A stretch of DNA of 57,892 bases from an uncultured Candidatus Saccharibacteria bacterium (GCA_964565105.1 CAZMCG010000001.1:1-57892), one strand, 5' to 3'. Shown: positions 4,392 through 31,288, numbered from the stretch's first letter. Notes: generated from the sequence alone by a model not told the origin. Numbers and translations: made by a program.

Positions 4392-5141
4392 CTATCTTAA
4401 CGCCCCTGGGCGCTTGGAGCTCCAATCAAAAAGCGTTACGGCGAGCGACGCCGCTACATTTAACGATTCAAGTTGTGAGTGCGTTGGTATTGCAAGCAAC
4501 TCATCACAAAGCTCTCTGGTTTTTTGTCGAATCCCCTTGGCCTCGTTTCCTATTATAAAAACCGACGGTTCATCATACGATTCCTCATTGATTGTTTTCA
4601 CTGCTTCTCCGTCCAACCCATAAATGCGGAATCCTTTATCTTTTAAATCACGGATGGTCATGTTTACATTTGGTATTTCCACAATTGGCACACGAAATGC
4701 CATCCCCGCAGAAACTTTCACAACAGCACCCGTAACGGGGGATTGGTTGTGCCTTGGCATCAATACTCCCGATGCGCCAAATCCTGCGGACGAACGGATT
4801 ATCGCGCCGACATTGTGCGGATCTTCTATCTCACCTAAAAGTACCAATGCGTTGTCGGGACCAATTTCTAACTTGCGGATAAAGTCATCATACTGCAGTA
4901 CTAATTTATCTAAAGAAATTCTTCCAATTACCCCCTGATGCACATCAGAATTTTTTACCCCCTGAGTGTTTTTACCGGAGCCAAGGGGGGACAAAGAAAC
5001 ATTTGCGTTATCAATTGCCTCACGCAAGTTTTTGTCTTTATTATTCTTGGCAAGAAAAACCTTATCTACAGCATACGGAGCGTTAAGAAGCGCTTCCATA
5101 AGTGCGTGCCTCCCATAAATAAATATCTTATTTTGTTTCAT
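4392..5141 (-). CDS. TrmH/SpoU-family RNA 2'-O-methyltransferase (RlmB-like)
   Basis: Contains IEDPHNVGAIIRSSAGFG, IIGNEAKGI and SLNVAASLAVTLF motifs. GGAGG lies 6 nt upstream of the ATG at 5141. Confidence 0.85.
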   Translation of the reverse strand: MKQNKIFIYGRHALMEALLNAPYAVDKVFLAKNNKDKNLREAIDNANVSLSPLGSGKNTQGVKNSDVHQGVIGRISLDKLVLQYDDFIRKLEIGPDNALVLLGEIEDPHNVGAIIRSSAGFGASGVLMPRHNQSPVTGAVVKVSAGMAFRVPIVEIPNVNMTIRDLKDKGFRIYGLDGEAVKTINEESYDEPSVFIIGNEAKGIRQKTRELCDELLAIPTHSQLESLNVAASLAVTLFDWSSKRPGALR

Positions 5142-5236
5142 AGCTTCACCTCCAAACATAACAAAAAACACCCCCCATCGTAAAGATAAGGTTGAAAAAG
5201 TCAGTGAATTGTTGCAGTTTAGATAATATACTTAAG

Positions 5237-5307
5237 TGCCGGATCATCTAATGGTAGGATGCGAGATTCTGGATCTCGTCGTCTAGGTTCGAATCCTAGT
5301 CCGGCAA
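5237..5307 (+). tRNA. tRNA-Gln (anticodon CUG)
   Basis: Hand-folded cloverleaf: acceptor tgccgga/tccggca, anticodon stem cgaga/tctcg with loop ttCTGga, T-arm ctagg-ttcgaat-cctag. CCA is not encoded. Confidence 0.9.
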
Positions 5308-5556
5308 CATTCATTCATACTTTCTTCCGAGAGACAGCTATTTCGATAGTAGGAGTTACTAGTCGTATTGTTATACGGAAAATATAAAACTCATTACATT
5401 CAAACACTTATATTTTCCTACAATACTCCTGCAACTCAGGATACTCTCTCCATAAGTCTCTCAAGAAGAAAATATTCATTCTTATTATTACTTAATGCTA
5501 CCTGCCATCTAAAAGATGGCGGGTTTCCAGGGTTTTTAGGGATTTGAACGGGAAGG
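5301..5556 (+). repeat. Direct repeat copy 1 (AT-rich module following tRNA-Gln)
   Basis: Aligns with 7739-8083 starting from the shared junction ccggcaac|attcattcatac. Identity is roughly 85-90% by eye. It ends in the hairpin ctgccatct-aaa-agatggcggg. Confidence 0.85.
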
Positions 5557-5726
5557 AAATCTTTCCTCTGCATGAAGCTGCGGGCGGGCAGGTGGGGAAA
5601 CGGCCCGCTCCGCCATAGCTTTAGCGAGGCGAGTAGTTTTCCATGGCGGAGTGCACGAACCGATGGGTTCGTGGGGGCAATCTACTGTATAACGGATTGC
5701 GACGTTCGATTACCTAGCCTGGTAAC
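5537..5726 (+). repeat. GC-rich structured element E1 (tRNA-Gln-end-bounded family)
   Basis: The 5' end tagggatttgaacg (5537-5550) is near-complementary (12 of 14) to the 3' end cgttcgattaccta (5703-5716). It contains the conserved core atggcggag-tg-cacgaacc-gatg-ggttcgtg (5643-5673) and ends in cctagcctggtaac, which resembles a tRNA-Gln 3' end. Confidence 0.6.
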
Positions 5727-6079
5727 ACAAGTGAAGCGAGTATTGATGACTTGTGCCTTTCAGTAGTCTCCTGACCCCCCGAAGCCCTTGGCGAAGGGCG
5801 TAAGTTATTGGCCTGTGGTTTTCACGGATAAATGTACATTTATATATTAGGTAGTAGATAGGAGAATGCATTGGTGGGGGAATTTTCCTTGGCTCCCGTA
5901 ATAGCTATTATTTTTACTATCATTGGATACGATGGATATATATTTTACTGCAACACCGCGCTTTCGCTGATAGGGTAAGAAAATATTTTTGATACCCTCT
6001 CTTTTTTCCGAGGATGGCAAGGTTGGAGTCGGTGCCGATGATATGATAAAATGATAAAGATGAACCCAAAAATATTTCG

Positions 6080-6427
6080 ATGAGAAGTCTACGCACGAAA
6101 GAAACACAAAAAAAATATGACGATTACAAAAAATCTGGGGGAATTAGCGGTGAATGCAACTTATGCAAATCAGAACCAATAAAATCGTTCGGGCGCTGGA
6201 GAATCATAGATAACGATTTCCCGTACGACAGAATCGCAGACACTCATCACATGATTATCCCAAATCGCCACATTACTGAAGACGATATTACAGATGAAGA
6301 ATGGGAGGAATTTAAGAAGATGAAAAAGGGCTATATAAACGACAACTATAATTTCATTTTCGAGAACACAATAAAAACAAAAACAATCCCAAAACATTTC
6401 CATATTCAATTAATGGTAGTTAAATAA
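6080..6427 (+). CDS. HIT-superfamily protein (HxHxQ branch)
   Basis: 115-aa ORF with an N-terminal CNLC, FPYD...HHMIIPNRH and a C-terminal HFHIQLMV triad-like motif. Confidence 0.7.
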   Translation: MRSLRTKETQKKYDDYKKSGGISGECNLCKSEPIKSFGRWRIIDNDFPYDRIADTHHMIIPNRHITEDDITDEEWEEFKKMKKGYINDNYNFIFENTIKTKTIPKHFHIQLMVVK

Positions 6428-6790
6428 TAAATATTATGACACTCCGAAAAATCGGACATAGCTCTTTCTTTTTGTTTTTAACGAGCTATTTTATTGAACA
6501 AAAAACCCCGACTTTCGTTTAGCCGAGACTTTTCTAATACCTAAAGAGTGTTTGCTTACATTAGAAAGTTAAAATTGCCACGACTAAACAAAGGGTTATC
6601 GTTCGCACCTCGCGAAATGATAAAGCCAATCGACCCTAGCTTTATCCAGTTGTAGCTGTCTCCGAGGAGAAATCAAACAACAATGCAGTATAATTATAAA
6701 TACATAGGCGCTATTCGCATAAAACAAGGGTTGAGATATAAAAATGTTTAGAGCCCGCAAACGAAACGGGCTCTGTGGTTGGGGGAGGTA

Positions 6791-6973
6791 CTACGCGTTA
6801 CGCGTACGGCGCCCAATGGGTTTTCCCTCACCGGGGATGAGCCTAATGGCTTCATCTAGGTATCTCAAGATCCAGTCCGGCGTTAGGGTGGTGTTGCTGA
6901 GCAGGTAGCGGAGTTCGAGGAGGTTGTCCCGCGCCTCCTGAAGATCTCCTTGTGTTATCTGTGTTGTAGTCAT
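6791..6973 (-). CDS. Hypothetical small protein (GC-rich orphan)
   Basis: 60-aa ORF immediately downstream of 7016-7291 on the same strand. GC is visibly higher than in neighbouring genes. The hairpin agagcccg/cgggctct follows it. Confidence 0.5.
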   Translation of the reverse strand: MTTTQITQGDLQEARDNLLELRYLLSNTTLTPDWILRYLDEAIRLIPGEGKPIGRRTRNA

Positions 6974-7015
6974 TTGTCATTCCTTTTCTCGGTGGACTCT
7001 GGGTCAGTGGAACGC

Positions 7016-7291
7016 TTACACTGTAGTTATGGCCCTGATTTCTTCCAGTTCTTTGCGTCCCTCATTGGTGACAAAAAGCTTTAGGGTTACAGGCGCCACC
7101 TTGATGGCGTTGTTATTTATACGGGAGAGTTCAAGTTTAAGAGCGCGCTCACTAAACCACCAGCCATAACTAGAGTTCGCGATGGCCGTATAGAGTTCAC
7201 TTGCTGTGTACTTACCATAGCCAACATGCTCTAGGAGCACTCTGCGAATTTCGCGACGGACACTGTCTGGGGGATAAATTCCAGGGGGCAT
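7016..7291 (-). CDS. Hypothetical small protein (GC-rich orphan)
   Basis: A strong SD (AAGGAGG) lies 5 nt upstream of the ATG at 7291, which starts MPPGIYPPDSVRR. This start is preferred over the longer TTG start at 7339. Confidence 0.6.
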   Translation of the reverse strand: MPPGIYPPDSVRREIRRVLLEHVGYGKYTASELYTAIANSSYGWWFSERALKLELSRINNNAIKVAPVTLKLFVTNEGRKELEEIRAITTV

Positions 7292-7496
7292 ACCTACCTC
7301 CTTGGGGTAATTGTTAGGGTGCGTACGCTTCTTTACCAAAACATACCAGACTTTATGCTAGAGTGGAAGGTAGGGTTGATGAGAAACTCCCCGAATGTAT
7401 ATAATATAAGTTAGTGTTGGGTGGCGCTTTGTTTGCCCGGCTATTATTCGGAGGAAATGCTTATATTCTATTGCGCAATCATTTCATTCCTCATTC

Positions 7497-7567
7497 TGCC
7501 GGGTGGTGTAACGGTAGCACGCTAGGTTTTGATCCTAGAAATCGGGGTTCGATTCCCTGCCCGGCAA
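7497..7567 (+). tRNA. tRNA-Gln (anticodon UUG)
   Basis: Acceptor tgccggg/cccggca, anticodon stem ctagg/cctag with loop ttTTGat, T-arm cgggg-ttcgatt-ccctg. Confidence 0.9.
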
Positions 7568-7576
7568 CAAAAATGG

Positions 7577-7609
7577 AGTAGTCGTTTTTCTGACGGCTAC
7601 TTTGTTTTT
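7577..7609 (+). terminator. Intrinsic terminator of tRNA-Gln(UUG)
   Basis: Stem agtagtcg (7577-7584) / cggctact (7594-7601) followed by ttgttttt. Confidence 0.7.
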
Positions 7610-7610
7610 G

Positions 7611-7746
7611 TGGCAGGGAATCGAACGCGAAAGGGGTCGGGAAAACAGCTGTTTTCCTGTGGCGGAGCGCACGAACCGAGGGGTTCGTGAAAGTCCCGAA
7701 CTAGTTGAGGGACGAGTGAGATAGCGAAGCGTCCCTGCCCGGCAAC
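7611..7746 (+). repeat. GC-rich structured element E2
   Basis: Starts with ggcagggaatcgaac (7612-7626), the exact reverse complement of the tRNA T-arm/acceptor at 7547-7561. Contains hairpins ggaaaacagctgttttcc and cacgaacc-gagg-ggttcgtg (7670-7689). Ends in tccctgcccggcaac (7732-7746), identical to the tRNA 3' end at 7554-7568. Confidence 0.65.
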
Positions 7747-8083
7747 ATTCATTCATACTTTCTTTCGAGAAACGACTATTTCTATAGTAAAAGCTACTAG
7801 TCGTATTGCTATACGGAAAATATAAAACTCATTACATTCAAACACTTATATTCTCCTACATCAACGAGTGAGAAAAAATGAAGATATAAATATCTTCATT
7901 TTATCCGAACGAGGAAGATGCAAGAAATTGTTTTACAATTTTGCCACAATACTCCTGTACCTTTATTATACTATCTCCATAAGTCTCTCGATAAGAAAAT
8001 ATTCACTCATATTATTACTAAGTGTTACCCGCCATCTAAAAGATGGCGGGTTCCCGGGATTTGTAGGGAATCGAACGGGAAGG
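7739..8083 (+). repeat. Direct repeat copy 2 (AT-rich module)
   Basis: Aligns with 5301-5556 and carries an extra 87-nt insertion at 7861-7947. Confidence 0.85.
7872..7903. terminator. Bidirectional terminator-like hairpin inside the copy-2-specific insertion
   Basis: aaaaa-atgaagata-taaa-tatcttcat-tttt: a perfect 9-bp stem flanked by an A-run and a T-run. Confidence 0.5.
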
Positions 8084-8246
8084 GGTTCCTCCAGAGGCGG
8101 ACAGGCAGGGAAACGGTAGTTTCCCGTGGCGGAGCTCACGAACCGAGGGGTTCGTGAGAGTCCCAAATTAGTTGAGGGACGAGTGAGATAGCTTGTCCTG
8201 TTTATCTCGAGCTACGTCGAGGGACGAAGCGCCCCCGCAGGGCAAC
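8063..8246 (+). repeat. GC-rich structured element E3
   Basis: The 5' part gtagggaatcgaacgggaagg includes a 12-nt complement of the tRNA-Gln(UUG) T-arm. Contains gggaaac-ggta-gtttccc, the core gtggcggag-ct-cacgaacc-gagg-ggttcgtg (8127-8156), an extended gagata...tatctc hairpin, and a degenerate 3' end cgcagggcaac. Confidence 0.6.
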
Positions 8247-8317
8247 AGCCAGTTGAGACCGACTGGAGAGGTTGATTAGAACCTTTTGTTAATGGTTTAG
8301 TGTTATGCTTAGTGTAA

Positions 8318-9274
8318 ATGTTTATAGATGATGTAACAATTAGAGTATCCGCTGGTGATGGTGGTCGTGGAAAAGTAGCTTTTAACTCTAACGCCATGAG
8401 TCTTGGTCCAGCAGGTGGTAGTGGTGGCAATGGTGGGAGTGTCTATTTGGAGGGTGGTTCTAACTTAGATTTGTTAAACAATCTGCGCTTCAAAAAAGAG
8501 ATTAAAGCTATTAGTGGACAGGATGGCAAGCCACAATTCCGCGATGGCGCCGGTGCTAGAGATCTGATATTAAAAGTGCCAGTGGGGACTTTGGTTCATA
8601 ATCTTGATACCAACGAGGAGAAAGAGGTTCTAAAAATAGGACAAAAAAATCTCATTGCTAAAGGAGGTTCTGGCGGAAAAGGCAACTTTCTTTTTCGAAG
8701 TTCACGCAATACAAGTCCTCGTCAATTTCAAGAGGGGCTACCTGGAGAAAAATTTACATTTCGTTTCAAATTAAAACTTATTGCGGACGTTGGTTTCATT
8801 GGCTTACCGAATGTAGGAAAATCTAGTTTTCTAAATGAATTGACTAATGCCAAAAGTAGGGTTGCTAATTATCAATTCACTACGCTCGAGCCAAATTTGG
8901 GAGTTTATTACCACTTAATACTTGCTGATATTCCGGGGCTTATTGAGGGGGCGTCTTCGGGGAAAGGACTGGGTATTAAATTCCTTCAGCACATTGAACG
9001 CACTAAAGTCTTGTTTCATTTTGTCTCTGCTGAGTCAATTAACCTAATTAATGATTACAAGACTGTCCGAAGCGAACTTAAAAAATACAATGAAGAATTA
9101 CTCGATAAGCCAGAGTATCTTTTAATTAGTAAGAGTGACTTGGTTGACTCAGTAGATCTGGAGAAAAAACTTAAGTCTTTAAAAAAAGTAAGCAAAAATA
9201 TCTTAGCTATATCCATCTATGATATAGATAGCATTGAAGCTGTTAAGAAAATCCTTAATAGTTTAGAAAAATAG
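8318..9274 (+). CDS. obg: GTPase Obg
   Basis: N-terminal Obg fold MFIDDVTIRVSAGDGGRGKVAFN, G1 motif GLPNVGKSS and G3 motif DIPGLIEGAS. Confidence 0.95.
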   Translation: MFIDDVTIRVSAGDGGRGKVAFNSNAMSLGPAGGSGGNGGSVYLEGGSNLDLLNNLRFKKEIKAISGQDGKPQFRDGAGARDLILKVPVGTLVHNLDTNEEKEVLKIGQKNLIAKGGSGGKGNFLFRSSRNTSPRQFQEGLPGEKFTFRFKLKLIADVGFIGLPNVGKSSFLNELTNAKSRVANYQFTTLEPNLGVYYHLILADIPGLIEGASSGKGLGIKFLQHIERTKVLFHFVSAESINLINDYKTVRSELKKYNEELLDKPEYLLISKSDLVDSVDLEKKLKSLKKVSKNILAISIYDIDSIEAVKKILNSLEK

Positions 9275-11052: not shown

Positions 11053-12249
11053 ATGAATAGACAAAACAATCATCGCCGTACTGGTGGGGCTTCTTCTTTT
11101 AGGAAACGACCCCAATCATCTCGAAAATATTCTCACAAAAGGATAGATATTTCGAGATATATTAATACAAATACTCAACCTATTGAGGCTATTAAATATA
11201 CTCATAGGCATAATTTTAAAGACTTCCCTATAGGAGAAAGCCTCAAAGTTAATATTGCATCTAAAGGATATACCACTCCAACTCCTATCCAAGATCAAAT
11301 AATCCCTGAGATTCTAAAGGGATTGGATGTTGTCGGTGTTGCAAATACTGGCACTGGTAAAACAGCAGCATTCCTTATTCCATTGATTCATAAAGCTCAA
11401 GTTAGAAATAAGGAACAAATTTTAATTGTAGTTCCAACTAGAGAATTGGCTCTTCAAATTAATGAAGAATTAAAATCATTTATTAGAAAAACGGGTATGC
11501 GCTCTACATGCACAGTAGGAGGTTCACCAATTGGTCGTCAGATTTCAGACCTTAGGCGCTTTAATAACTTTGTTATCGGGACCCCTGGACGAATTAAAGA
11601 TCTAATTGAGAGAAAAGTATTAAATCTTTCAAAGTTCAACACAGTAGTCTTAGACGAAGCGGATAGAATGCTTGACATGGGATTTATTAACGATATGCGT
11701 TTCATGATGTCTAAAATGCCACACGTTAGGCACACACTTTTCTTTTCAGCCACCGTTTCAGTAGAGATTGAAAAATTAATTAAGGAATTTCTTAAAGATC
11801 CTGTCCGTGTATCAGTGAAGACGGGGGAGACAGCAAAGAATATTCATCAAGATATCGTTAGGATTAAAAAAACTTCTAACAAGATGGATACACTTCATGA
11901 TCTATTAAAGAATAAAGAATTCGATAAGGTTCTTGTTTTTGGCAAAACAAAACACGGTGTCCAAAGGATATCTAACGCCCTTCTTAAAAGAGGACTTTCT
12001 TCAACAGCAATTCATGGAAACAAAAGTCAGCCTCAAAGACAAAGAGCTTTAAGTGATTTTAAAACTAATAGAACTCGCATTTTAGTAGCCACAGATGTAG
12101 CCGCTAGGGGATTAGATATTCCTGATGTAAGTCACGTTATTAATTTTGATATACCAGCTACATACGAAGACTACGTTCACCGTATTGGTCGCACTGGCCG
12201 AATTAATAAGAAAGGTAAAGCACTTACGTTTATTGAACACTCTGTGTAG
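11053..12249 (+). CDS. DEAD-box ATP-dependent RNA helicase
   Basis: Q-motif region TPTPIQ, then ANTGTGKTAAF, PTRELA, DEAD, SAT and HRIGRTGR. Confidence 0.9.
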   Translation: MNRQNNHRRTGGASSFRKRPQSSRKYSHKRIDISRYINTNTQPIEAIKYTHRHNFKDFPIGESLKVNIASKGYTTPTPIQDQIIPEILKGLDVVGVANTGTGKTAAFLIPLIHKAQVRNKEQILIVVPTRELALQINEELKSFIRKTGMRSTCTVGGSPIGRQISDLRRFNNFVIGTPGRIKDLIERKVLNLSKFNTVVLDEADRMLDMGFINDMRFMMSKMPHVRHTLFFSATVSVEIEKLIKEFLKDPVRVSVKTGETAKNIHQDIVRIKKTSNKMDTLHDLLKNKEFDKVLVFGKTKHGVQRISNALLKRGLSSTAIHGNKSQPQRQRALSDFKTNRTRILVATDVAARGLDIPDVSHVINFDIPATYEDYVHRIGRTGRINKKGKALTFIEHSV

Positions 12250-12324
12250 GGGGTTGAGCACGAGTCGTTGATGGGTAGTCAAATCGTACTAGTACGAGGA
12301 GTGTATGGGTATCGTACGCTTGAG

Positions 12325-12349
12325 GTGGGTTCGATTCCCACTATCTCCA
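12325..12349 (+). ncRNA. Orphan tRNA/tmRNA-like T-arm plus 3' acceptor strand (no cognate 5' half found)
   Basis: gtggg-ttcgatt-cccac followed by tatctcc-a. This closely resembles a tmRNA/tRNA 3' end, but no GGAGAUA/GGGGAUA partner lies within tRNA distance upstream. Confidence 0.4.
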
Positions 12350-12482
12350 GGAACTTGCAATCTAGTCAAGGATTCAGTGATTTTTTGATACTGTTCTTTT
12401 GAATAATCTATGCTCTTGAAGGGAGCTTGTTGTGCCGAAAGTATACTTAATACGAACTAGCCTTGAATTGATAGCGTGGATT

Positions 12483-12555
12483 GAGGAAATTGAAGGCGAC
12501 TTCGAATAACTTGATGGAGGACGAGTGAGATAGCGAAGCGTCCCTGCCCGGCAAC
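12483..12555 (+). repeat. GC-rich element E4 (short form)
   Basis: gaggaaattgaaggcgac resembles the E 5' arm. The block 12519-12555 is identical over 37 nt to 7710-7746 and ends in the tRNA-Gln 3'-end 15-mer. Confidence 0.6.
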
Positions 12556-30328: not shown

Positions 30329-31288
30329 ATGGAGAAAAACCAACGACCACTCCCCCTTCATATTCCGGATTATTTAGACTGGCTTGATGTAGAAAGGGGT
30401 CTTTCTACAAAAACTCAAGAAAACTATGCTCGTTTTTTAGGAAGATTTTTAGAATGGCTTGAAAAAAACAAATTATCCAACCTAAAACCCCACGAAGTCT
30501 CCCCCGACCACATTTGGAAATATAAAATTTATCTAGCACGACAAACACGCTCAAAGCGCTCCTCTCAGGCACTAAAAAAGACTACCCAAAACCATTATCT
30601 TATTGTATTACGCTCTCTTTTTGGATATTTTGCGGACAGAGATATATTAGCTCTTCCACCTGAAAAAATTAAATTACCTAGAGATAGGAGTGATAGAGAG
30701 GTTCGTTTTCTTTCTTTAGAGCAATTAGAGCGATTATTTTGTGCCCCCAATACATCTTTGCCCGGGGGGTTGAGGGACAGGGCAATACTAGAAACTTTTT
30801 TCTCTACAGGCATGCGCATATCAGAGCTTGTAGGACTTAATCGAGAGCAGATAGAGCGATTTCTTAATTCAGAAGACTTAGAATTGGGCATTGTTGGTAA
30901 AGGGGGTAAGGCTCGCACGGTTTATTTTTCACCCAGATCTCTTTTGTGGATTAAAAAATATCTCAAAACACGCAAAGATAATGATAAGGCCCTATTTGTA
31001 AACTACAGAAGACGGAAAGATGCACCCTATAGACTCACTCCTCGGTCAATAGAAAAAGCTATTAAAAAATATGCCTCAATCGCCGGGCTACCCCCTAACA
31101 CAACCCCCCATGTTCTCAGACACTCATTTGCTACAGACCTTTTAAGTCAAGGTGTGGATATAAGAGTTTTACAAGAATTCCTTGGACACAAAAGCATCAC
31201 TGCTACTCAAATCTATGCCCATGTTACTAGTAAAAAATTACGAGAGGTACACCGCAAGTATCATGGTGGCCATAGGTTATCAAAATAA
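30329..31288 (+). CDS. Tyrosine site-specific recombinase (XerC/XerD-like)
   Basis: N-terminal SAM-like domain, then RDRAILE..TGMRISEL, HVLRHSFATDLL and LGHKSITATQIYAHV. Confidence 0.9.
   Translation: MEKNQRPLPLHIPDYLDWLDVERGLSTKTQENYARFLGRFLEWLEKNKLSNLKPHEVSPDHIWKYKIYLARQTRSKRSSQALKKTTQNHYLIVLRSLFGYFADRDILALPPEKIKLPRDRSDREVRFLSLEQLERLFCAPNTSLPGGLRDRAILETFFSTGMRISELVGLNREQIERFLNSEDLELGIVGKGGKARTVYFSPRSLLWIKKYLKTRKDNDKALFVNYRRRKDAPYRLTPRSIEKAIKKYASIAGLPPNTTPHVLRHSFATDLLSQGVDIRVLQEFLGHKSITATQIYAHVTSKKLREVHRKYHGGHRLSK

Follow-up and report, generated by a model that had tools for sequence, protein, structure and literature searches.

Two tRNA-Gln genes and their repeated 3' flanks

The window analyzed in this work is the whole stretch of 57,892 nucleotides (nt) CAZMCG010000001.1:1-57892 (GCA_964565105.1) from an uncultured Candidatus Saccharibacteria bacterium, the genome of which is of the ultra-small Patescibacteria type and comprises 578 kb in 40 contigs with ~41% GC. 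It contains two tRNA-Gln genes on the plus strand, tRNA-Gln(CUG) at 5237-5308 and tRNA-Gln(UUG) at 7497-7568 (both identified by ARAGORN, with Rfam tRNA scores of 59.1 and 65.8 bits, respectively), which are accompanied by copies of two repeats, namely, an AT-rich structured module, termed M, and a GC-rich element, termed E. A unit formed by M and the element E1 starts directly 3' of tRNA-Gln(CUG), and tRNA-Gln(UUG) is the presumed target of two units, one containing E2 and the other composed of M' and E3. The initial annotation of this locus had listed the tRNA-Gln pair, a junction common to both copies, a duplicated module, an 87-nt insert, and a copy of a tRNA end, and all of these are present in the sequence, with a module of ~226 nt and a copied end of 15-16 nt. 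The two tRNA genes are 71% identical to each other, and CUG and UUG Gln tRNAs are separate genes in relatives too. According to an ARAGORN search of the whole genome, the tRNA-Gln(UUG) gene at 7497-7568 is its sole Gln(UUG) gene.

The end of tRNA-Gln(UUG), TCCCTGCCCGGCAACA, located at 7554-7569, occurs a second time at 7732-7747. There, it joins M' at the same nucleotide at which M joins the real tRNA-Gln(CUG), the junction ccggcaac/attcattc being common to both copies. This second occurrence agrees with the end of tRNA-Gln(UUG) in 16 of 16 positions and with that of tRNA-Gln(CUG) in 13 of 16. In addition, 7612-7626 is a perfect 15-nt reverse complement of 7547-7561, which corresponds to the T-loop and the 3' strand of the T-stem of tRNA-Gln(UUG). 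These two sequences are the arms of E2 (7612-7747, plus strand), an intact E element that matches the covariance model of the family with 97.2 bits (E = 4e-21). E2 is composed of the antisense arm (7612-7626), the hairpins P2 (7638-7659) and P3 (7670-7689), a variable P4, and the sense arm (7732-7747), and it folds as a four-way junction; both arms are perfect (15/15 to 7547-7561 and 16/16 to 7554-7569). The element begins 43 nt 3' of tRNA-Gln(UUG), and the intervening spacer (7569-7611, plus strand) has a terminator-like sequence with an A-run, a hairpin, and a T-run. By analogy with the filled tRNA-Phe site of genome G034 described below, this hairpin may be cargo of the E2 unit.

The other E elements of the window are less well preserved. 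E1 (5535-5728, plus strand) is an old, decayed copy with nested GC-rich insertions; the covariance model matched 5538-5726 (54.1 bits, E = 9e-11), and an antisense arm at about 5538-5549, a P3 hairpin at 5654-5673, and a sense-arm remnant, GTTCGATTACCTAGCCTGGTAACA, at 5704-5727 can be discerned. Its arms do not tell CUG and UUG apart (scores of 13 versus 15 and of 8 versus 8). E3 (8062-8247, plus strand; model match at 8092-8205, 62.3 bits) is an older element cognate to tRNA-Gln(UUG), given an antisense arm that matches the UUG T-loop and T-stem in 12/12 positions and a sense arm, CCCCGCAGGGCAACA, that matches the UUG end in 12/15; it is 87% identical to E2 over the aligned part. Both are set apart from their tRNAs, E1 by M and E3 by E2 plus M'. 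Since the arms of E2 are perfect while those of E1 and E3 have decayed, E2 is probably the youngest E element of the window. E4 (12508-12555, plus strand) is an orphan 3' fragment of an E2-like element (92% identity over 48 nt by BLAST), the last 37 nt of which are identical to E2; it ends in a tRNA-Gln(UUG) sense arm although it lies 4.8 kb away from that tRNA, and the terminator that follows it is homologous to the terminator behind the E copy of tRNA-Pro on contig C8. Further copies in this genome are associated with tRNA-Pro (antisense arm 13/13, sense copy of 15 nt), tRNA-Arg(UCU) (antisense arm 13/13), and tRNA-His (antisense arm 14/15).

M copy 1 (5309-5534, plus strand; 226 nt) recurs as M' (M copy 2; 7747-8061, plus strand), which is split by an 87-nt insertion at 7861-7947, as had been noted initially. 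The duplication of the module could equally be confirmed. Segments 5309-5422 and 7747-7860 share 91% identity (104/114) and segments 5423-5534 and 7948-8061 share 85% (95/112), and the similarity runs on at 80-85% into the GC-rich E1 and E3. In the fold of M copy 1 (-58.8 kcal/mol, z = -6.3 against shuffles), about 5321-5335 pair with 5455-5471 in a long-range stem that closes the structure, which further includes an inner hairpin (GGAAAATATAA/TTATATTTTCC) and, at 5500-5524, a terminal one. In both loci, M sits exactly between a CCGGCAAC end and the 5' arm of E. The initial annotation had proposed a search for further copies of the module, and M proved not to be unique to the locus: at least four more M-like copies were detected in the genome by BLAST, on contigs C7, C14, C38, and C18, which fits repeat families. 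These copies adjoin neither tRNAs nor E elements, and no M copies were found in relatives.

The 87-nt insertion in M' is a reverse-oriented (minus-strand) member of a third repeat family. Its relatives, identified by BLAST with 73-89% identity (C8:5117-5200, C8:5366-5393, C8:5426-5496, C18:10015-10062, and C4:32055-32101), otherwise adjoin tRNA genes, namely, tRNA-Arg genes on C8, tRNA-Thr on C18, and tRNA-Ile on C4. At C8:5080-5520, a GC-rich unit of ~90 nt, in which GTGGCGAAATTGCAAAGCAATTTCTTGCG and CTCGTTCG are followed by an A-run hairpin, occurs three times around two tRNA-Arg genes, and the insertion in M' is a reverse copy of this unit.

It is likely that the two-copy pattern results not from an island but from small gene-less units that were inserted one after another behind the two tRNA-Gln genes, at their 3' ends. 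Three parts would make up a unit, namely, cargo in the form of either a terminator-like hairpin of 40-60 nt or the 226-nt repeat M, an E element, and the copied tRNA end, and E would be made up of an antisense arm (the inverted T-loop and T-stem 3' strand), a core, and a sense arm that reaches from about tRNA position 58-60 to the discriminator plus one base. In a first step, M-E1 would have entered behind tRNA-Gln(CUG) and its sister M'-E3 behind tRNA-Gln(UUG). The 178-nt unit of hairpin and E2 would then have entered at the UUG tRNA end and displaced M'-E3 downstream, with the result that M' now abuts the 16-nt copy of the tRNA end, and the 87-nt repeat would finally have landed inside M'.

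Two considerations limit the confidence in this series of events. Its order is inferred and not observed, as no strain close enough was found: an Obg-anchored metagenome scan yielded no close strain for the window locus, synteny is not conserved, and the best Obg relatives (73-77% identical) are not syntenic. In L087 and L088, the nearest informative contigs (66% Obg identity), tRNA-Gln(CUG) is located about 560 nt upstream of obg and none of the DNA that intervenes in the window is present, the order being RNase H, RNase P RNA, a peptidyl-prolyl isomerase gene, tRNA-Gln(CUG), a small GIY-YIG open reading frame (ORF), and obg. Furthermore, since the arms of E1 are blind to the difference between CUG and UUG, M-E1 may have reached the CUG tRNA via the shared CCGGCAAC(A) or by gene conversion, without an arm-matching insertion. 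The E1 arms were consequently discarded as proof of a re-templating onto the CUG tRNA.

An alternative history is that homology-driven gene conversion copied M from one locus to the other, in which case no M'-E3 unit would have been inserted ahead of E2. Homology would be provided on one side by the tRNA-Gln 3' end (either the real one or the sense arm of E2) and on the other by the 5' part of E. The exact placement of M between the CCGGCAAC end and the 5' arm of E in both loci speaks for such an exchange, as do E1 arms that are not CUG specific and M-like copies elsewhere that adjoin neither tRNAs nor E. However, the homology on the left amounts to only 8-16 nt, and the 80-85% similarity of E1 and E3 fits the copying of a whole M-E unit. 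We consider gene conversion unlikely, albeit with a probability that deserves to be taken into account; it alters the history of M alone and affects neither the rejection of the island nor the nature of E. The identical order of tRNA, M, and E in both copies could also have arisen by an old segmental duplication of a tRNA-Gln-M-E block, after which the tRNAs diverged to CUG and UUG without any insertion activity. This is very improbable, given that 71% identity between the tRNAs compared to 85-91% between M and M' implies a module much younger than the tRNA split, that E2 and its hairpin lie with perfect arms between the UUG tRNA and M', and that relatives also have the CUG and UUG tRNAs as separate genes.

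The initial annotation had favored a further possibility, namely, that 5557-7738 is a tRNA-targeted integrated island, with attL and attR in the form of the two modules that carry the junction. A duplicated tRNA 3' end and a direct repeat of about 0.3 kb on both sides are features of such islands, and the GC-rich orphan ORFs at 6791-7294 could be foreign. However, this reading is contradicted on three defining features and is extremely unlikely. The repeated tRNA end fits the UUG tRNA inside the bracket (16/16) and not the CUG tRNA at the left border (13/16), and the segment bears the sole tRNA-Gln(UUG) gene of the genome and hence is not dispensable cargo. BLAST also showed the segment to be unique in the genome, which speaks against an island as well. 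As already stated in the initial annotation, there is no integrase inside; the ORFs of 5557-7738 are a HIT-like ORF and two orphans, and the only PF00589 matches in the genome are at 30707-31231 of the window and at C6:18712-19188. The repeated end is explained by E2, whose family always ends in this way, and the repeats are members of dispersed families. The duplicated tRNA 3' end was thus correctly taken as the mark of an insertion at a tRNA gene but was assigned to the wrong unit, as the att-like repeat 7554-7569/7732-7747 flanks the 178-nt unit of hairpin and E2 (7569-7746) and not 2.2 kb. A false genomic-island call is thereby removed from this locus, and stacked mini-insertions can mimic attL and attR.

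The E family in related genomes

The E family was explored by BLAST of the region against 60 relatives, followed by searches with a covariance model built from 16 copies. Sixty loci were retrieved from dozens of genomes, and several of the counts given below refer to 57 copies or to 53 tRNA-E pairs. E elements have a length of 120-190 nt, are GC rich, and lie directly behind tRNA or transfer-messenger RNA (tmRNA) genes. Among 61 relatives, 47 have the element, as do 78 of the 201 genomes of the order, and in many ultra-small Patescibacteria genomes up to one tRNA gene in three is followed by E. Even among genomes of one family, its occurrence is patchy; genomes with E have 1 to 16 copies, and E-free genomes are otherwise complete. 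For 51/57 copies, the core anchor GGGGUCGGGAAAAC is located 18-148 nt beyond the end of a tRNA of the same strand, and one further copy (L029) lies behind a tmRNA-like gene. Nearly every tRNA species is occupied, and the orientation of E is always that of the tRNA. Terminator-like hairpins are often found 3' of E. Tandem or nested copies occur in the window as well as in L025, L155, G141, G222, and G078, and decayed or orphan fragments are represented by E1, E3, E4, L015, and L021.

Both arms are matched to the adjacent tRNA. The exact sense arm has a median length of 15 nt against cognate tRNAs versus 6 nt against non-cognate ones, and for the exact antisense arm these medians are 10 and 6 nt, respectively. 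Counted from the tRNA end, the sense arm begins 14-18 nt inward, near T-loop position 58-60; it mostly stops at the discriminator plus 0 or 1, and in about eight copies it continues for 10-40+ nt of flanking sequence. In 39/53 pairs, the antisense arm has its inner end at about tRNA position 53, and its outer end varies. This arm mirrors the T-loop of its own tRNA (AATCGAA for TTCGATT and ACTTGAA for TTCAAGT) and fits it better than it fits the 3' arm of the element itself, even where that 3' arm follows the consensus of the family (GUGAGAU or GUUCGAUU). A resemblance to T-loops is likewise shown by the constant ends of E, namely, ATTCGAAC (5' end) and GTTCGATT or GTGAGAT (3' end).

Several other identities were considered and rejected. 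E is not the end part of a larger gene-carrying element, as the spacers in the 53 pairs measure only 2-124 nt, nor is it a minus-strand, split, or permuted tRNA, as no cloverleaf fits. A role of the antisense arm as a primer-binding site for the tRNA 3' end was dismissed because the acceptor terminus is not covered. An origin of the sense arm from mature tRNA was equally discarded, since CCA follows in 5/46 copies versus 7/46 genes, which is no enrichment. The sense arm, lacking a CCA signature and being able to include flanking sequence, is copied from DNA or from the primary transcript and not from mature tRNA.

The architecture of the arms bears on the possibility that E spreads passively, through template switching during replication or repair. 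The switch would take place at the T-loop sequence GTTCGAAT, which is conserved and includes TTCGAA as a palindrome. Having copied the T-arm of the target, a nascent strand would change over to a donor E at the T-loop-like ends of the latter and then return, and both arms would thereby be re-templated from the target without a dedicated enzyme. The fixed inner junction of the antisense arm at tRNA position 53 or so, the T-loop-like constant ends, the extension of some sense arms by 10-40+ nt into the flank, a 3-nt microhomology at the left junction of the tRNA-Tyr copy of G034 (see below), and the fact that no partner protein was found are all compatible with this process. It leaves unexplained, however, the purifying selection on P2/P3 pairing and on the conserved junction sequences, it fits poorly with hundreds of insertions of one precise architecture, and direct evidence for it is lacking; template switching therefore appears to us a rather improbable route.

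Single E copies fold as four-way junctions, in which the antisense and sense arms pair to form P1, the hairpins P2 and P3 are conserved whereas the hairpin P4 is variable, and the acceptor 3' strand remains as a single-stranded tail. P2 has the form CGGGAAAAC-GNRA-GUUUUCCCG and P3 the form CACGAACC-GNNG-GGUUCGUG. In an alignment of 66 copies, P2 and P3 were 99% paired, and 13 of their 17 pairs had changed on both sides (147 cells), a degree of covariation that was reached by none of 500 shuffles and approached by no slid register. The fold of E is under selection. Wobble cells of the G.U/U.G type outnumbered those of the A.C/C.A type by 14 to 1, an excess indicating that the fold reads on the tRNA-sense strand, either as RNA or as that DNA strand.

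A fold that is strongly conserved, with compensatory and strand-specific substitutions, invites the question of whether E is a resident, non-mobile RNA domain of tRNA transcription units, such as a trailer RNA that would bind the T-arm of its tRNA in processing, quality control, or regulation, and is gained and lost like other genes. The constant orientation relative to the tRNA, the terminator-like hairpins that often follow, and the better fit of the antisense arm to the tRNA T-loop than to its own 3' arm would all be accommodated. Much of the distribution is difficult to reconcile with this idea: E is patchy within a single genus (11 copies versus 0 and 0; see below), copy numbers range from 1 to 16 per genome, any tRNA species can be occupied, tandem and nested copies as well as decayed and orphan fragments exist, and E-free genomes are otherwise complete. 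A purely resident RNA is consequently also improbable, to about the same degree as template switching.

A scan of 5000-8400 of the window with Rfam 15 at E <= 1 returned the two tRNAs and two chance-level matches only, with no intron, ribozyme, or small RNA family. Full-text literature searches yielded no description of E-type elements, one paper on tRNA gene fragments treating classical islands only, and the family is apparently undescribed.

Copies of tRNA 3' parts also occur without an E core. In the genome of the window, the tRNA-Asn, tRNA-Thr(CGU), tRNA-Met, and tRNA-Trp genes are followed by direct copies of their own 3' parts (C9:14400-14822, minus strand; C18:9550-9980, minus strand; C20:11774-12056; and C8:9034-9450). 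The tRNA-Asn repeat comprises 38 nt from the anticodon loop onward, with 52 nt between the copies, and the spacers at these repeats contain small GC hairpins of the type TCCRCC-NNNN-GGYGGA.

Empty sites, accretion, and possible mechanisms

Genus g25 offers a comparison of filled and empty sites. Of its genomes, G034 has 11 E copies, and G223 and G024 have none. The tRNA-Tyr, tRNA-Arg(TCT), and tRNA-Phe sites are filled in G034, and their orthologues are empty in G223 and G024. At the empty tRNA-Phe sites, the tRNA is directly followed by AAATTGACTCTTATCGGCCGCG. In G034, the tRNA is followed by a new hairpin, then by antisense arm, core, and sense arm, and only after the sense arm by the native flank, GATTGTCTCTTATCGGCCGCG; the hairpin is not present in the empty sites of G223 and G024. 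This comparison indicates that the hairpin, E, and a copy of the tRNA end were inserted exactly at the tRNA end, and by analogy the same logic may apply to E2 followed by M' in the window. At tRNA-Arg(UCU), G034 has about 200 extra nt, with copies of a stretch of about 40 nt, composed of sense arm and terminator, on either side. At tRNA-Tyr, the similarity to both congeners ends exactly at the start of E, the repeat of 22 nt takes in 9 nt of flank, and the left junction shows the 3-nt microhomology mentioned above. The empty sites in congeners thus show that E is an insertion. For the tRNA-Gln(CUG) site of G034, no empty orthologue was found, the flanks being rearranged.

Serial accretion at one tRNA end is a general habit, since it is seen at the G034 sites and since tandem E copies are also present in L025, L155, G141, G222, and G078; the window locus is a clear example of it. 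In G034, the region 2100-3580 of L153 (on C7) contains 1.35 kb between the E copy of tRNA-Tyr and a conserved tRNA-Thr pair, with an ORF for a dihydroorotate-dehydrogenase-like protein of 315 amino acids (aa). This segment is not present in G223 or G024. A third, decayed tRNA-Tyr end with a terminator lies between this ORF and the conserved tRNA-Thr genes, and the 1.35 kb together with this third end suggest that gene-carrying DNA also accretes at the same tRNA end.

While the anatomy of E, the match of its arms to the tRNA, the selection on its fold, and its nature as an insertion are established by these data, the mechanism is inferred; we favor integration in trans of a folded single strand, either RNA or single-stranded DNA (ssDNA), by an enzyme that is not encoded in the element. 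The sense arm would serve as an att-like segment of identity with the tRNA end, the antisense arm would find its pairing partner in a T-loop region, either that of the target or that of E, and any tRNA would be accessible by virtue of the constant ends, which resemble T-loops. E might, more generally, be a protein-less mobile element whose choice of target is written in nucleic acid: the folded RNA or ssDNA would recognize the universal T-loop and insert just behind the gene, both arms would be re-templated, and the chemistry would be performed by a host enzyme or an element-independent one. This comprehensive view is put forward tentatively, as one that may well be wrong.

Three observations speak against the reading of the window as serial insertions. 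No enzyme that tracks E was found among the protein families compared (see below). The hairpins at the tRNA-Tyr and tRNA-Arg(TCT) sites of G034 resemble or duplicate the native terminator, which implies that the assignment of the hairpin as cargo is not universal and that some copies look like local duplications that include the flank. Finally, the strong conservation of the core would also fit an RNA that is useful to the host.

Candidate partner proteins were sought by comparing 17 E-rich with 20 E-free genomes. The IS110 DEDD recombinase (PF01548) was detected in 0/37 genomes, with control genomes giving matches, and the TnpB zinc-ribbon family PF07282 was likewise found in 0/37. Tyrosine recombinases are present about once per genome in 36/37, E-free genomes included, and with about one copy irrespective of E, they look like housekeeping enzymes of the Xer type. 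Serine recombinases do not track E (8/17 E-rich versus 9/20 E-free genomes, and none in the genome of the window), and neither do Y1 transposases (Y1_Tnp, including the type of REP-associated tyrosine transposases [RAYT]; 6/17 versus 4/20). The results for TnpB and Y1 transposases speak against membership in IS200/IS605 or in the PATEs derived from it. Reverse transcriptases were detected in 13/17 E-rich versus 4/20 E-free genomes. However, they do not track E either, as four E-rich, near-complete genomes lack them and as, within g25, the E-rich genome has none whereas both E-free genomes do. Neither this pattern nor the copied ends, with their lack of a CCA signature, mark E as a retroelement such as a retron, a group II intron, or a tRNA-primed element. 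The reverse transcriptase of the window's own genome is of the diversity-generating retroelement (DGR) type with an Avd-like partner; at C15:18-1859, a DGR-type protein of 396 aa with an IGNLTSQ motif is preceded by an ORF of 87 aa for an Avd-like four-helix bundle.

Comparison with known systems and further observations

The closest known systems are the tRNA/tmRNA-targeting tyrosine-integrase elements (P4-like, with crossover in the segment from the T-loop to the 3' end) and their integrase-less remnants, the cis-mobilizable elements (CIMEs). Like these, E enters a tRNA or tmRNA gene precisely at its 3' terminus and leaves the tRNA intact, produces a direct repeat from the T-loop/T-stem to the end of the gene, and forms tandem arrays of successive units at the same tRNA. 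In contrast, E units measure 120-400 nt and are gene-less, one conserved core is found, each time with matching arms, on nearly every tRNA species, the T-loop and T-stem are additionally present as an inverted copy, selection acts on the RNA-type fold of the core, and no integrase is linked to the element.

E resembles miniature inverted-repeat transposable elements (MITEs) and the REP/REPIN, BOX, Correia, and RUP repeats in being short, non-coding, multicopy, intergenic, rich in hairpins, often near terminators, and patchy in distribution. However, MITEs have fixed terminal inverted repeats and short target duplications of fixed length, whereas the arms of E are copied from each target tRNA, and the repeat generated by E is 14-18 nt, up to 40+ nt (overall range, 10-58 nt), and does not always directly flank the insert. 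Unlike miniature repeats, E targets strictly tRNA ends in a specific orientation, and no matching transposase was found.

With the attC sites of integrons, the attP(+) hairpin of CTXphi that is used by XerCD, and integrative mobile elements exploiting Xer (IMEX), E shares the properties of DNA that lacks a protein or integrase of its own, relies on host enzymes, and has a strand-specific fold conserved beyond sequence. The target of E, by contrast, is a tRNA end, which we take to be unlike a dif site, and not dif or attI, and no integron integrase is present. E also resembles the bridge RNA of IS110, the seekRNA of IS1111, the omega RNA of IS605 TnpB, and the guide pairings of group I/II introns in that it is a structured RNA of ~100-200 nt with variable segments complementary or identical to the target. 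Unlike in these RNA-guided systems, IS110 DEDD and TnpB proteins are absent from the 37 genomes, there is no Rfam intron or ribozyme match, and the target sequences matched by the two arms overlap in a single segment and do not form adjacent halves. No known transposase, integrase, bridge-RNA recombinase, or TnpB tracks the family. E may turn out to be either a mobile element guided by nucleic acid or a regulatory RNA specific to tRNAs, both of which would represent a new type of tRNA-linked element and would matter for the annotation of tRNA loci, "tRNA fragments," and islands in such genomes.

Some other features of the genome are of interest. At C38:1550-1600, a GC-rich hairpin mini-insert (TCCGAGGCGACGCCTCGGA) lies within an M-like repeat and has a 9-nt direct repeat, ACATTCTCT, on either side, which resembles the target-site duplication of yet another tiny repeat family. 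In the window, a stretch of ~100 nt (12249-12350) directly after the stop codon of a DEAD-box helicase gene begins with GGGGTTGAG and closes with a canonical T-arm and an acceptor-like 3' strand (GGTGGGTTCGATTCCCACTATCTCCA); this stretch may represent a minimal gene of a tmRNA- or tRNA-like type. ARAGORN found no tmRNA anywhere in the genome.

Nothing ties the ORFs between the repeats to the repeats themselves. The plus-strand ORF at 6080-6427 (115 aa, from the ORF list), which had been annotated as a HIT gene, is at most HIT-like: despite an HxHxQ-type motif, Pfam gave a sub-threshold match to DUF3605 only, and neither PHROG nor NCBIfam gave a match. The two orphan ORFs at 6791-6973 and 7016-7294 (listed under the minus strand) encode 60 and 92 aa and have 50-58% GC, compared to 41% for the genome. 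They have no reliable family matches, and for one of them, orfB, only the protein itself was retrieved among 5.8 billion proteins. They may be recently acquired (foreign) DNA, or they may not be genes. Within 6744-7340, the two are convergently arranged and have strong Shine-Dalgarno-like sequences.

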